Below, piece after piece: positions 1-21,000 of a stretch of DNA of 64,000 bases. Made by a program: the position numbers. Position 1 is the stretch's first letter, and each line of letters begins with the position of its first letter. The DNA comes from Rhizobium sp. Q54 (GTDB taxonomy: Bacteria > Pseudomonadota > Alphaproteobacteria > SMXQ01), in assembly GCA_945861615.1 (NCBI GenBank), contig CAMAVH010000002.1, positions 2,955 through 66,954 of the forward strand. The letters are read 5' to 3'.

Positions 1-3000
1 CCGTCGGTCGAAATCGTCGGCAATCCCGACATGCTCTATCTCGCCATCGGCATCCTCGGCGCCACCGTGATGCCCCATAACCTCTATCTGCACACCGCCG
101 TGGTGCAAAGCCGCGCCGTCGGCCCGGCGCCCGAGCAGAAGCGCGAGGCGATCCGCTACGCCTCGCTCGATTCGACCATCGCCTTGACCATTGCCCTGCT
201 GATCAACTCGTCGATCCTGATCCTGGCGGCCGCCACCTTCCACACGGCGGGCCGCACCGAGGTGGCCGAGATTCAGGAAGCCTACAAGCTGCTCGCGCCG
301 ATGCTCGGCGCCGGCTTCGCCGCCACGCTGTTCGCCGTGGCGCTGCTCGCCTCGGGCCTTAATTCGACGGTGACGGCGACCATCGCCGGCCAGGTGGTGA
401 TGCAGGGCTTCTTGCGCTTCAAGCTGCCGATGTGGCTGACCCGGCTGCTGACGCGCCTGGTCGCCATCGTGCCCGCCATCGCGGTCACCTGGCTCTACCA
501 AGAGACCGGCACCGGCGAATTGCTGATCCTGTCGCAGGTCATTCTCAGCCTGCAGCTGCCCTTCGCCGTCATCCCATTGATGCTGTTCGTCAGCGATCGC
601 AAGCTGATGGGCGATTTCCGCCCGCCAGCCTGGATGATCGTCCTCGGCTGGGCCTCGGCCGCCCTGGTCGTGACGATCAACGTCAAACTGCTGACGGACA
701 TGGCGCTGGGACTCTAAGCTGCGCCCCATTAAACTCGCGCCATGAATGCTGCAACCCCACGCCCCGCCGTCTTTCTAGACCGCGACGGCACCATTATCGA
801 AGACGTCGATTACCTTACCCGCGCGGAGCAATTGCGCCTCATCCCCGGCGCGTCGGCGGCAATTCGAGCCTTGAACGAGCAAGGCCTCGCTGTCGTCGTC
901 GTCACCAACCAGTCAGCCGTCGCCAGAGGGATGCTGACAGAAGACGGGCTCGACGCGATCCACCAGCGCCTCACCGACATGCTCGCCGCCGACGGGGCCC
1001 ATCTCGACGCAATCTACTACTGCCCACATCTCCCCGAAGGCGGGCTTGCGCCCTACGACCGCTCCTGCGATTGCCGTAAGCCAGCGCCCGGCATGCTGCT
1101 GCAAGCGACGAAGGAGCACGGCATCGACCTCACCGCTAGCGCCATGATTGGCGACAGTCTGCGCGATCTTGATGCGGGCGCCGCCGCCGGTTGCAAAACA
1201 TTAATCTTGTTGCGGACCGGCCACGGCGCCGCCGAGGAGGCGGCGTCAGCGCTCCGCGCAAGTTTCGTTGCCGAAGATCTCGCCGGCGCTGTCGCCGAAC
1301 TGCTCAGCCGGAGGTAACCCCGCCCGGCGCCACCAACTTGCGGCCCAACAACCAATAAGCGACCGCCCCCCCCAAGCCATGGACTAGCGTAATGGCGAGC
1401 AGCGGCGCAGCGAGCCCGACGTACGGAAAGAGCAGAACGATCAAGGCAAACTTAGCAATAAGCTCCCCGCCAGAAACCCAGATCAGCCCCCGCATCGCAG
1501 CCATCGACTGCGCCACAGTCGCGGGCAGACGCGACAGGCTGATCCAAAAAATCGCGCCGCCAGCGAGAAGATAGAGGTAAATATCGGTTGGTGCTTTGGC
1601 GCTACCGACCCATAGACGCACGACCCACGGGCCCAGCAAGCCATAGCCCACAGCCGCCACGCATGAGCCCACGGCCATCCACAACCACACCTCACGATAA
1701 ATGCGCGCTAGGCGATCGCGCTCGCCGGTGACGTCCATCGCGACGAATTCCGGTTGCAGATGAAGGGGAACACGCGCGAGCAGCTGGATAAGCATTTCCG
1801 CGATTTTCCAGACTAGCGCATATTGCGCCGCCATGATCGGACCGCCCCACAAGCCGATGAGCAGCATGTCGGACTGCAGGCTGATGCCGATTAACGCATA
1901 AGCCAGATATTTACCGCCCTGGCCGGACAGCATCTGCCCGATCGCGCTCCCGATCCCGATGAGGGATATCTTGAGCCGGAAAGAGGGATGCGAACGGCGT
2001 ACCCACCAGACGACGGCGCGCATCGCAAGATCATTGGCTAGAAAGCATACCATTACCCCGACGAGGCCGCCGCCCGACAGCAGCCACGGCACCACGCTAG
2101 CCGTAAAAACGCCGAGACCTACCAACATCGAGATATTGACTGCGAACTGGCGCTTGGCGGCAGCAAGAATCGTCTGCTCTATTTGGATTTCACACAGCAG
2201 TATGAAATGCACTGCTGCCAGTATCATCGCAGTCATAATTTCCTCACGCAAAGCCACAGGGGCATCGCGGAAGAAAACGGAATGCATGGCTTCCAGCAAA
2301 AGCATGCCGCCGGCGCAGAGCAAGCTGCTCCCCAGCAGCATCAGCTTACCGGCGATATAAAAGCGGGAAAATCCGCTAGCATCGCCCGCCGCCATGCTCT
2401 CGCTGAAACGGCGCAGCAGAAACCCGTGCGGCCAGCTGAGAATCGTATAACCAAAAACGACCTGCGCCATGAAGATCGTCAGAACGCCGAAGCGGTAGTC
2501 GCCAAGCACGTGCAGATAAAGTGGGATCAATAGAATCTGGACTAGCGCCTGCGCCACCATCAGCCCATAGCTGGCCAGCACGGCGCCGACGTAGTCGGGA
2601 TTGTTCCGCGCTTTGGCGAAAAGATCAGCAATTTTGTTCAAAGAATCGGCCAGTGGTGCGGCACTTGCGCCTTGCGTGGAAATCGGCTTTACCATACGTT
2701 GCCAGGGCCAATAAACTATAGCGTTTTCTCTATATCGGTATACGGCCCGGACTGAGAAAGCGTCACCATAGCCGTGAGCGCATGTCGGTATAGATGACCA
2801 CACATACCCAGACTTTTTTCGACGAAGTACAAAAGATCGCGGCGACTCTCGATTACGCCACCATCGAAACCTTGGCCAATGAACTCGCCGCATTGCGCGA
2901 CCGCGAGGGGCGGTTATTTATGCTTGGCGTCGGCGGCAGCGCCGCCAATTGCGCCCATGCAGTAAACGATTTCCGCAAGCTTTGCGGCATCGAAACTTAC

Positions 3001-18000: not shown

Positions 18001-21000
18001 AAACGGCGCCCGCAGGGCAATCAGGGCTCGGCGCAAAGCCAGAGTCGCAGGACGGCGCGGGTTGCGCAATTCGTTGCCAAGCACAGCGCCGACATAGCCG
18101 ACCCCTTGCTCGCGCAGGCCTGTCCGAAATTTGCCGAAAAGGCTGCTCATGTCCTATCAGTTCCTGCCAATCGATCGTCAAGCGAGGGCGGCAACATAAT
18201 TGCCATAAATACTCAAGTTAACACCTTGAGATTATTGAAAATACCCTTGAAAATTCGAGCAGCCTGTGGTGTTTAATATCCTCGTATGGCCAAAATACCA
18301 AGACAAGATAAGTACTATGGCTCGCATGAGCATTTGACCCGCGAAGATGAGGTAAAATCCTCATCCAATCGCTCGTTCGGACTTGTCTTCGCCGCTTGCT
18401 GTTTCGTCGTGGGCGCGCTCAGCTGGTTGTCCGGCCATACCCATTGGCCTTACTGGTTCGCCGGCTCGGCGGCTTTCCTTCTCGTCGCCTTGACCCTGCC
18501 GCGCAGCCTGGGGCCTTTCAACCGCTTATGGACGAAATTCGGCCTGCTGCTCGGCGCCGTGATGGCGCCGGTCATGCTGGCGGCGATTTTCTATGTGTTC
18601 GTCACGCCGATCGGTTTGTTGATGCGTGCGACCGGCAAGGACCCGCTCCGCCTCAAGCTCGACCCCGCCGCGACGTCCTACTGGATTGCGCGCGACAAGG
18701 TCGCCGACGCCAAGACATCTTTCAAAAACCAATACTGAGCCGGGACCATCATGCTGCTCTCGATCCTCCGCGAACTCGTCACCTTCCTGAAGGTCCGCAA
18801 GAAATACTGGATCATCCCGATCTTCGTCGTGATGGCACTGTTCGGCGGCCTGATCGTGCTGACCAAGGGCAGCGCCGTCGCGCCCTTCATCTACACGATC
18901 TTCTGATCGCCGCCCCATGCGCGTTCTCGGCCTTTCCGCCTTTTATCACGATAGCGCCGCGGCGCTGGTCGACGGCGGTCGCATCGTCGCCGCGGCGCAG
19001 GAAGAGCGTTTCACGCGCAAGAAATTCGACAGTTCCTATCCCCGCCATTCAGTCGAGTATTGTCTGGCCGCCGCCGGCCTGACGCTAAACGACATCGACT
19101 ACGTCACTTTCTACGACAAGCCGTTCATCAAGTTCGAGCGGCTGCTGGAAACCTACCTGACGTTCAGCCCGAAGGGCTTCAAGTCCTTCCGCATGGCGCT
19201 GCCGCTGTGGCTCCGCGAAAAGCTGTTCCAGAAAGCCCTTCTGGCCGAGAAGCTGAAGGAGATGGAGCCGAATTTCGATTGGGAAAAACGGCTCCTGTTT
19301 TCCGAGCACCACTTGAGCCACGCCGCCTCGGCGTTCTATCCGTCGCCTTTCGAGCGTGCTGCGGTCTTGACGATGGACGGCGTCGGCGAATGGGCGACCA
19401 CCTCGATCGCCATCGGCAACGGCCGCGCGCTCGACGTGCGCCAGGAAATCCATTTTCCGCACAGCCTCGGCCTGCTCTATTCCGCCTTCACCTACTACAC
19501 GGGCTTTCGCGTCAATTCCGGCGAATACAAGCTGATGGGCCTCGCGCCTTACGGCGAGCCGCGCTACGCAAACCTGATTCGCGACCATCTGATCGACGTC
19601 AAGCCTGATGGCTCTTTCCGTCTCAACATCGATTATTTCGATTTCTGCACCGGTTTGACCATGACCAACGCGAAGTTCGACGCGCTGTTCGGTGGTCCGG
19701 CGCGGCCGCCAGAAAGTCTACTGACCCAGCGCGACATGGACCTCGCCGCTTCGGTGCAGCTCGTGATTGAAGAGATCATTCTCAAGATCACCCGCAACAT
19801 CGCCAAGGAAACCGGCGAGAAGAATCTCTGCCTCGCCGGCGGCGTCGCGCTCAACTGCGTCGCCAATGGCAAGGTGTTGCGCGACGGCAAGTTCGAGAAG
19901 ATTTGGATTCAGCCGTCCGCCGGTGACGCCGGCGGCGCCCTCGGCGCGGCGCTGGCTGCCTACTATCTTCATGCCGAGCAGCCACGCGAAGTCTCCAACG
20001 GCATGGACGCCATGTCGGGCGCCTACCTCGGCCCCGCCTTCGAGCAGGACGACATCGACCGCTGCTTGACGGCCGTCGGCGCTCGTTTCACCACGCTCGA
20101 CCGCGAGGCGATGCTCGACACCACCGCCGACGCGCTTGCCGCCGGCAAGGCGATCGGCTGGTTTCAAGGCCGCATGGAATTCGGACCGCGCGCCCTCGGC
20201 AACCGCTCGATTATCGGCGATCCGCGCAGCCCGGAAATGCAAAAAACCCTCAATTTGCGGGTCAAGTACCGCGAGAGCTTCCGTCCTTTCGCGCCCTCGG
20301 TGTTGCGCGAGCGCGTGTCCGAATGGTTCGCCATGGATGGCGATAGCCCCTACATGCTGCTCGTCGCCCCGGTGGCGGACGCCCACATCAAGCCGATGAC
20401 TGAGGCGGACGAGCAACTGTTCGGCATCGAGAAGCTCAACGTGCCGCGCTCATCGATTCCGGCCGTCACTCACGTCGATTATTCGGCCCGCGTGCAGACC
20501 GTTCATCGCGAAACAAATGCCGTTTATTACGACCTCATCGAGAAATTCGGCGAGCGCACGGGCTGCCCCGTCATTATCAATACGAGTTTCAACATCCGCA
20601 GTGAGCCGATCGTCTGCACGCCCGAAGATGCGTTCCGCTGCTTCATGGGTTGCGAGATCGAGCTGCTGGTCGTCGGCAACGCTGTGTTGCGCAAGGAAGA
20701 CCAGGACCCCGCTCTGAAGACCGATTACAAAGACGACTTCGAACTCGATTAGCCGCCGACGCCTGAGGAAAGCGACGAATCGTTCGCCCAGCGTGTCATA
20801 GTCACTCCATACCGACAGAGAGCCCCATCTTGAAAAAAGCACTGATCATTGGCGGCGGAGCCGCTGGTTGCACCGCCGCGCATCAACTGATGAAGATGGG
20901 CGGTTGGGATGTGCTGCTCGTCGAAGCGGGCGCCTTCCTCGGGGCCGGTGTGCGCACCTTTTACTATGGCGGCCATCCCTACACCTTCGGTCCGCGCCAT

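Follow-up and report, generated by a model that had tools for sequence, protein, structure and literature searches.

The DNA analyzed here (the window) is a stretch of 64,000 nucleotides from Rhizobium sp. Q54 (contig CAMAVH010000002.1, positions 2,955 to 66,954), in which a glycan locus extends from approximately 0.7 to 46 kb. Within this locus, a minus-strand cassette (18150 to 14895) encodes a protein of 387 amino acids (aa) with a predicted glycosyltransferase (GT) fold of the GT-B type, the permease Wzm and the ATPase Wzt of an ATP-binding cassette (ABC) exporter, and a NUDIX hydrolase. The cassette is considered, with moderate confidence, to be the conserved core of an ABC-transporter-dependent surface polysaccharide pathway of the O-antigen or capsule type. 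The identities of the exporter genes, the predicted folds, synteny, and the local divergence of the cassette carry this reading. The window is GC-rich (~61%), and about 58 genes were called in it, with the selection of open reading frames (ORFs) guided by the GC content of third codon positions (GC3). All the features described in an initial annotation of this DNA, made from the sequence alone, were supported as real genes by GC3 bias, homologs, and synteny. The glycan locus is bordered by an Nramp gene on the left and by a Rad52/DUF968 phage-like remnant on the right (at 47.6 kb). No glycan genes were found by the Pfam scan between 46 and 64 kb, where regulators, cytochromes, and a sensor kinase are located instead.

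The four genes of the cassette are tightly packed, with two gaps of 4 bp each and one overlap of 1 bp, the latter between the stop of wzt and the start of the NUDIX gene. The first gene (16987..18150, minus strand) encodes the 387-aa protein, which is cytoplasmic and was assigned to an unclassified family with a predicted GT-B fold nearest to GT9. It is followed, on the same strand, by wzm (16155..16982; an ABC-2 permease of 275 aa with ~6 hydrophobic segments, PF01061 E 6e-11), wzt (15386..16150; an ABC ATPase of 254 aa, PF00005 E 9e-20), and, as the last gene, the one for the NUDIX hydrolase (14895..15386; 163 aa, PF00293 E 7e-13). The initial annotation had described the permease, the ATPase, and the 387-aa gene as a minus-strand operon, which stands, and had missed the fourth gene. 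When the region from 14.5 to 19 kb was scanned for promoters and terminators, no signal above the shuffled background was detected.

The exporter was classified by its sequence as a Wzm/Wzt-type ABC polysaccharide exporter. The best NCBIfam models were those of the galactan exporter: Wzm/RfbD with 226 bits and Wzt/RfbE with 265 bits. The equivalog cutoffs of that exporter (NF050108, NF050109) were missed by both subunits (265 vs 400 bits for Wzt, 226 vs 380 for Wzm), and the two proteins are placed in the same class as the galactan exporter, not among its orthologs. In the PDB search, Wzm matched 9qfx_A (M. tuberculosis Wzm, E 2.6e-48), TarG (2e-8), and A. aeolicus Wzm (1e-4), and Wzt matched 9qfx_C (E 2.4e-66), TarH (8e-45), A. 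aeolicus Wzt (6e-44), and KpsT (1.6e-32). The exporter had initially been labeled "KpsMT/Wzm-Wzt-like", and only the second half of the label could be kept. A KpsMT group 2 capsule exporter was rejected: the KpsM model of NCBIfam gave E 0.051 (13.5 bits, cutoff 300), and there was no KpsM match in the PDB. Neither KpsE, KpsD, KpsC, nor KpsS was found in the window, and no ORF in it matched Capsule_synth, Poly_export, or Wzz.

Wzt contains the expected ATPase motifs (Walker A GTNGAGKST, signature YSAGM, Walker B ILLMDE, and the H-loop). The match to Wzt/RfbE spans residues 7–247, and the protein ends at residue 254. The carbohydrate-binding subclass of Wzt was defined by a C-terminal domain of ~150–200 aa beyond the nucleotide-binding domain; the Wzt of the window is the nucleotide-binding domain alone, which bears out the initial description of a 254-aa ATPase lacking the carbohydrate-binding domain. 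In A. aeolicus, the exporter reads a modified chain end via this extra domain, unlike the mycobacterial WzmWzt (PMC13649706). Since the domain is absent here, the methyltransferases of the locus would more likely decorate the chain than make a cap read by Wzt, and the latter role is considered unlikely for them. For the same reason, export would be independent of the reading of a terminal cap by Wzt.

The 387-aa protein was modeled with AlphaFold2 (45-sequence alignment; predicted local distance difference test score, pLDDT, 90.4; predicted template modeling score, pTM, 0.89). Three N-terminal helices, which make up a basic extension of about 50–60 residues, are followed by two Rossmann-like domains, and this two-Rossmann GT-B fold is superimposable on WaaC/WaaF. 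GT9 heptosyltransferases ranked at the top in two independent fold searches; in Foldseek, 3tov was matched at E 2e-6, and the order of the matches was the same as in the other search. Among 118 representatives of the family (24–44% identity), the residues D71, D80, R92, R130, R154, R229, R237-N238-S239, W244, D263, R291, N301, G307, Q355, and D362 were kept. In a GT9 alignment, the WaaC residues D13, K192, D261, and H266 were invariant. The conserved D80 immediately precedes helix alpha-1, which is the place of the catalytic D13 in WaaC, and the C-terminal domain has R237-N238-S239 after its first strand, at the place of the GT9 K192; both positions were assigned by secondary structure. As modeled, the 387-aa protein is a GT-B protein and most probably a glycosyltransferase. 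We infer a catalytic activity that would work like that of GT9 in an enzyme that is yet outside GT9 by sequence.

In total, 172 full-length homologs of the 387-aa protein were collected (380–410 aa, ~45–55% identity), and every one of them was named hypothetical. An exhaustive profile search returned 2,197 clusters (50% identity) at E ≤ 1e-3 and 708 at E ≤ 1e-30, all unannotated, so that the family comprises at least 2,197 such clusters. The plasmid collection contained no homologs. The fusion partners of the 387-aa domain in multidomain relatives are GT2, GT41 with tetratricopeptide repeats (TPR), TPR only, a Maf-like domain, and a B12-radical-SAM domain; the first four are typical glycosylation contexts.

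To determine synteny, the proteins of the window were all searched by tblastn in 25 loci, which were fetched for comparison with flanks of 10 kb and carry L numbers below. The 387-aa gene was followed by wzm, wzt, and mostly the NUDIX gene in 11 of the 15 genome loci, and the same arrangement was found in metagenome contigs. The NUDIX gene comes after wzt in eight loci, and a different order (wzm-wzt-387-aa gene) was observed in L021. The hosts included Hyphomicrobiaceae, Bradyrhizobium, Rhodospirillaceae, Parvibaculaceae, and Kiloniellaceae, as well as metagenome-assembled genomes of Acidobacteria and Binatia. Across the loci, the identities of the 387-aa protein and Wzm to their counterparts in the window dropped in step (82/89, 50/49, 46/46, 42/35, and 36/35%).

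The cassette is also locally divergent at the DNA level in two close relatives, L015 and L007. In L015, the neighboring sugar-precursor operon (see below) is 87–96% identical to that of the window, the segment from the NUDIX gene through wzt to wzm is 63–68% identical, and the 387-aa gene barely aligns. In L007, the identity is 79–84% in the cassette vs 97–99% in the flanks. The locus is a mosaic, and the local dip in identity is consistent with a serotype-like exchange of the cassette as one unit. Such an exchange would fit a functional interdependence of the transferase and the exporter.

Several results weigh against the proposed role of the cassette or of its first gene. The 387-aa protein had no Pfam match even at E ≤ 10 (PF01075 included) and no NCBIfam match, and its family profile found no GT, and no GT9 in particular, among the PDB sequences. 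The TM-scores of the model in Foldseek were just ~0.45–0.52. The heptose-binding D261 of WaaC is apparently replaced in the M-H-G-P segment of the 387-aa protein, as judged by eye, and hhalign of the family profile with E. coli WaaC/F/Q/U gave a probability of 0.1%. No initiating transferase (WecA/WbaP), WaaL, Wzy, or GT-C was found in the window. In three loci (L013, L022, and L023), the 387-aa gene is present with no wzm-wzt nearby, and in three others (L005, L009, and L010), the cassette is present with no heptose operon within 10 kb; therefore, neither linkage is obligatory.

By phmmer and by family profile, the 387-aa protein gave only chance-level matches to PDB sequences (E 2 and 0.12), and the initial statement that it carries no recognizable motifs was thus confirmed at the level of Pfam, NCBIfam, and PDB sequences. 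The sole hhalign pairing with WaaC/F/Q/U, which was non-significant, overlays exactly the D80 and R237-N238-S239 segments; a control with WaaG was equally negative. Membership in GT9 by sequence was rejected on the combined negatives from Pfam (E ≤ 10), the profile search of the PDB, and hhalign. The N-terminal helical extension was considered as a mark of the copies adjacent to wzm-wzt and was also rejected: the copies in L013, L022, and L023, which have no exporter, align from residues 1–12 as well.

A GT-B fold could also belong to a protein that is no glycosyltransferase, either a nucleotide-sugar 2-epimerase/hydrolase-type enzyme or a non-catalytic adaptor that docks biosynthesis onto Wzm-Wzt. 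The lack of sequence similarity to any GT family is in line with such a protein, and the basic three-helix extension could be an interaction or membrane-binding module. However, about 20 polar residues are near-invariant down to 24–44% identity, which favors catalysis over scaffolding, and the relatives are fused to other GT domains, not to epimerase-pathway enzymes. This explanation was rated as rather unlikely.

It was rated as very unlikely that the 387-aa protein glycosylates a surface or secreted protein, in the manner of the GT9-type autotransporter heptosyltransferase TibC, and that the TPR-bearing paralogs described below do likewise. The gene closely and recurrently shares an operon with Wzm/Wzt, an exporter of lipid-linked polysaccharides that takes no part in protein glycosylation in the cytoplasm. 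The window contains no gene for an autotransporter, a flagellin, or an S-layer protein, and TibC scores below the lipopolysaccharide (LPS) heptosyltransferases. What speaks for a protein acceptor is the company of the domain: relatives are fused to GT41 (OGT-like) with TPR or to a Maf-like MptE domain, both typical of protein glycosylation, and TPR domains accompany all four paralogs. A glycosyltransferase that acts on a polysaccharide exported by Wzm-Wzt is the preferred assignment.

In most loci, the cassette is adjoined by an operon that was recognized by Pfam, NCBIfam, and synteny as that of a nucleotide-heptose-derived sugar precursor (2794..14898, plus strand; adjacency by tblastn). Its genes encode, in this order, a GmhA-like SIS protein, a GmhB-like HAD protein, a transaldolase, two epimerase/dehydratases of the short-chain dehydrogenase/reductase (SDR) type, a HldE-like enzyme, a GFO oxidoreductase, a nucleoside diphosphate (NDP)-sugar dehydrogenase, an SDR enzyme, a methyltransferase, a split transketolase, and another SDR enzyme. 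Another gene on the plus strand (742..1317) encodes GmhB, the heptose 1,7-bisphosphate phosphatase (NCBIfam NF006506, 193.7 bits, cutoff 178). Together, the two regions encode four SDR enzymes and a pair of GmhB-type phosphatases, of which one exceeds the cutoff of its NCBIfam model. The domains of the HldE-like bifunctional enzyme are swapped, with the nucleotidyltransferase at the N-terminus and the kinase at the C-terminus. The longest ORF of the NDP-sugar dehydrogenase (8988–10685, plus strand, 565 aa) overlaps the GFO gene (8482–9408), and its real start was placed near 9405 because the homologs have 412–430 aa. The synteny of the operon is kept in seven of the fetched loci. Judged from these genes, the operon makes a nucleotide-activated heptose, which it then remodels heavily. 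The combination of a GT9-like enzyme with a neighboring nucleotide-heptose pathway is a coherent pairing, and a donor derived from this pathway is plausible.

The precursor operon is conserved, with a heptose-derived sugar as its product, and the module is present in Bradyrhizobium contigs. A C10 sugar, for example, bradyrhizose, would agree with the carbon count (C7 + C2 + C1). A link to bradyrhizose found no support: the peptides of the ORS285 gdh primers (DAFLPYK and DMSLRTYF) were absent from the window and from all fetched loci. The text of Busset et al. 2016 gives no gene content for the 11-gene operon.

On the other side of the precursor operon, a probable Wzx-like flippase of the MOP (multidrug/oligosaccharidyl-lipid/polysaccharide) superfamily is encoded (1304..2695, minus strand; 463 aa, at least 10 hydrophobic segments). 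The gene had initially been placed inside the sugar-precursor operon; it is on the opposite strand and transcribed divergently. The interval given for it, 1304..2696, had to be corrected, as its length is not a multiple of three: the ORF spans 1304–2893, its likeliest start is the ATG at 2695, and homologs cover 100% of the resulting 463-aa form. Wzx was defined as a polytopic membrane protein of ~400–500 aa with ~12 helices in a glycan locus, and the 463-aa protein answers this description. Its own sequence had no Pfam match and matched the NCBIfam model WZX_like weakly (E 4.8e-4, 19 bits, cutoff 300 bits). PF01943 (Polysacc_synt) was matched by 4 of its 22 homologs (24–95% identity; best E 1.6e-8), and the JGI name for members of its cluster is "O-antigen/teichoic acid export membrane protein". 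With hhalign, 108 columns of the family aligned to E. coli RfbX (E 0.023), again in the region of the NCBIfam match; nothing was obtained with WzxC or with Wzy (WbbH), which was used as a control. On these similarities, the protein is probably a very divergent MOP-family flippase.

The presence of two translocation systems of different class in one locus, as proposed in the initial annotation, was upheld by PF01061 and PF00005 for Wzm/Wzt and by PF01943 for the Wzx-like family, and is regarded as a real feature. Both exporter types were found again, at most 8 kb apart, in the unrelated locus L025. The two systems may serve two independent glycans that share only the precursor operon, for example, an ABC-exported O-antigen or capsule and a Wzx-translocated unit that is polymerized or ligated elsewhere; the chance of this was put at somewhat below even. 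In L024, L028, L029, and L030, Wzx-like homologs are located at the head of the precursor operon, in the same place as in the window, with no wzm-wzt in the 10-kb flank, and in L029 a GT2 lies inside this operon. In most loci, conversely, the ABC cassette has no Wzx-like gene within 10 kb; none lies on L012 either, a 15.6-kb contig of the cultivable Bradyrhizobium guangdongense. In the window, the two exporters flank the precursor operon, one at each end, in different transcription units. Against the separation into two glycans, co-occurrence was judged within the 10-kb flanks only, the two exporters are close together in L025, and the window contains neither a Wzy nor a second ligase. Single products that depend on both routes are also known from enterococci and lactococci, according to the available excerpts of PMC7188991 and PMC9574508.

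Apart from the cassette, four paralogs are candidate transferases of the GT-A type. Par485 (32498..33955, minus strand) was predicted to consist of a cryptic GT2-like GT-A domain and a C-terminal FAS1 domain (model pLDDT 87.5), and the same two domains were assigned to the other paralogs by alignment: Par511 (34862..36397, minus strand), Par723 (22000..24171, plus strand; 723 aa, fused C-terminal TPR region, weak TPR and Fasciclin matches), and Par878 (38650..41286, minus strand; basic linker and fused TPR region, TPR_16 match). About 450 residues are common to all four, including an invariant D (in a PD motif) and HxHP; at the DxD position, one invariant Asp only is held. TPR are fused to two of the four paralogs, and the other two are preceded by separate TPR genes: a 301-aa protein immediately upstream of Par485 (33960..34865, minus strand; TPR_2 and TPR_1, E 1e-9 to 1e-10) and a 329-aa protein immediately upstream of Par511 (36394..37383, minus strand; TPR matches). 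None of the paralogs matched any GT family, PF00535 included, at E ≤ 10, and the predicted fold would place them beyond the reach of sequence profiles.

The paralogs are cytoplasmic, with neither a signal peptide nor a membrane segment, and the JGI label for members of their cluster, "uncharacterized surface protein with fasciclin repeats", is probably a misannotation. Some of the FAS1 proteins among the fold matches are carotenoid binders (AstaP). By analogy, and as speculation, the FAS1 domain of the paralogs might bind the polyprenyl carrier.

The Pfam GT families had zero matches among ~52 ORFs of the whole window, and a profile scan for standard GT2 and GT4 domains, the discovery of which would have refuted the initial reading, found none. 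The initial impression that no GT-A or GT-B transferase is recognizable in the locus is therefore correct for profiles; GT-A and GT-B folds are nevertheless predicted in it, too divergent for profiles to detect. The 387-aa protein and the paralogs had been named as the prime candidates for the missing transferases, and the predicted folds are in favor of this (GT-B nearest GT9 for the former, GT-A + FAS1 in Par485 for the latter). Nothing was found in support of the other roles that had been offered for the 387-aa protein, a Wzy-type polymerase or a chain terminator.

A UDP (uridine diphosphate)-galactopyranose mutase-like protein is encoded ahead of Par723 (20830..21981, plus strand; PF03275 E 6e-31). 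It would supply a galactofuranose donor, and its gene is found along with those of the paralogs and of the 387-aa protein in four of the fetched loci. Divergently from the cassette (18286–20752, plus strand), genes for an SxtJ-like small membrane protein, a DUF5989-type 51-aa ORF, and an O-carbamoyltransferase are located. The 51-aa ORF was also found in L001 and L007, and the trio lies beside the cassette in four loci; it suggests glycan carbamoylation. O-methyltransferases of the TylF type are encoded at 24208–25371, 30154–31347, and 45115–45852; two of them are extended at the N-terminus by ~180 aa, and another is a truncated copy (245 aa). The regions 27587–30150 and 31355–32479 encode three SGNH/GDSL-like proteins, of which one has an N-terminal membrane anchor, and an AT3 acyltransferase is encoded at 43572–44750. 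The TylF, SGNH-like, and AT3 genes together suggest heavy O-methylation and periplasmic O-acylation.

A module of three genes on the minus strand (41256–43411) encodes an SDR epimerase, a LIC12192-family protein (TIGR04323, 129 bits), and a 2-oxoglutarate (2OG)-Fe(II) oxygenase of the "sporadic carbohydrate cluster" type (TIGR04324, 318 bits); the three are kept together in four loci. Adjoining the glycan locus, the phage-like module at 47626–49431 (plus strand) consists of the Rad52/DUF968 protein and a 111-aa ORF. The same pair was found in L030 (13071–15029), together with a Sipho_Gp157 gene, beside the Wzx-like/heptose locus of an unrelated contig.

If the cassette is the core of an ABC-transporter-dependent pathway, the following sequence of steps may be proposed. 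The plus-strand operon would produce a nucleotide-activated heptose, to be remodeled by the dehydratase/epimerases, oxidoreductases, methyltransferase, and split transketolase. At the cytoplasmic face, the 387-aa enzyme would transfer either this heptose-derived sugar or a conserved sugar with a priming or adaptor role onto a lipid-linked glycan, which we infer to be its acceptor. Other residues, probably including galactofuranose, would be added by the four cryptic GT-A + FAS1 transferases with their fused or adjacent TPR scaffolds, and the chain would be decorated by methyl-, carbamoyl-, and acyltransferases. The finished lipid-linked chain would be exported by Wzm-Wzt, as in the mycobacterial galactan exporter. 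The Wzx-like flippase would provide a second, separate route, the cargo of which may be a short lipid-linked unit that contains the same special sugar.

A more specific proposal is that the 387-aa family is a new GT family, which co-evolves and is physically coupled with Wzm-Wzt exporters lacking the carbohydrate-binding domain, and that it is the dedicated priming or polymerizing transferase for an unusual heptose-derived branched or higher-carbon sugar, perhaps of the bradyrhizose type, which the HldE-like, GFO, dehydrogenase, C-methyltransferase, and split transketolase genes of the conserved operon would produce. This was considered improbable. To our knowledge, no glycosyltransferase or pathway has been assigned to bradyrhizose. 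Should the proposal hold, the cassette would define an O-antigen or capsule chemistry that is widespread among Alphaproteobacteria of soil and freshwater, Bradyrhizobium among them, and has not been described before.

Loci for ABC-transporter-dependent glycans are commonly annotated via GT2, GT4, and GT9 profiles. The glycan locus described here, of ~45 kb, has five predicted transferases (one GT-B and four GT-A), none of which Pfam or NCBIfam detects; loci of this kind read differently once structure-based annotation is used. The 387-aa family is a large unannotated family of predicted GT-B proteins tied to Wzm-Wzt across phyla, and a candidate for a new CAZy family. It offers a tractable object for studying how exporters lacking the carbohydrate-binding domain are coupled to synthesis, and which enzyme installs the heptose-derived sugar. 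The locus is conventional in its logic and unusual in its parts: the GT-B family, the Wzt reduced to its nucleotide-binding domain, the proteins that combine GT-A, FAS1, and TPR, and the Wzx-like flippase tied to a heptose operon.

Compared with known transferases, the closest by fold to the 387-aa protein are WaaC/WaaF of GT9 (2h1f, 1psw, and 3tov). It differs from them in its low identity (10–13%), in its extra basic helical N-terminus, in having M-H-G-P-M-E in place of the D-T-G-x-x-H segment of GT9, and in the location of its gene, which belongs to an exporter operon instead of a core-LPS waa cluster. The paralogs are unlike the GT-A enzymes of the GT2 family (PglI-like AvpGT, K4CP, GlfT2, SpsA, and TarP) in the lack of a PF00535 match, in the one Asp at the DxD position, and in the HxHP motif. 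None of the matched GT-A structures has the C-terminal FAS1 domain or the TPR partner of the paralogs.

An ABC exporter and a Wzx-type flippase are also combined in the rhamnose-rich wall loci of enterococci, lactococci, and streptococci (Epa, cwps, and rgp), as described in the available excerpts of PMC7188991, PMC9574508, and PMC5596347. In the rhamnan of enterococci and lactococci, the backbone is made via the ABC transporter and the decorations via Wzx (excerpts of PMC7188991 and PMC9574508). Unlike the present locus, these loci are for Gram-positive wall polysaccharides and have recognizable GT2 and GT4 enzymes as well as GT-C or Wzy partners; the flippase of the window has no partner there and is linked to the precursor operon.

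Among the exporters, Wzm-Wzt of A. aeolicus and of E. coli O9a belong to the same transporter class as the one in the window, from which they differ in the C-terminal carbohydrate-binding domain of their Wzt. In M. tuberculosis, GlfT1 and GlfT2 build galactan, and WzmWzt (Rv3783/Rv3781) is its exporter; Rv3782, a galactofuranosyltransferase said to prime galactan polymerization, is numbered between the two exporter genes, and no carbohydrate-binding domain is described for Wzt (PMC13649706). The system in the window differs from the mycobacterial one in its co-located transferase, which is GT-B and GT9-like here and a GT-A enzyme of GT2 (GlfT1) there. It also differs in its Gram-negative alphaproteobacterial relatives, in the NUDIX gene of the cassette, and in the heptose-derived sugar chemistry. 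M. tuberculosis WzmWzt (9qfx) matches both subunits better than any other solved structure, and the two systems share a Wzt of ~260 aa that consists of the nucleotide-binding domain alone, a glycosyltransferase gene (predicted in the window) together with the exporter genes, and a UDP-galactopyranose mutase, for which a similar gene is present in the window.

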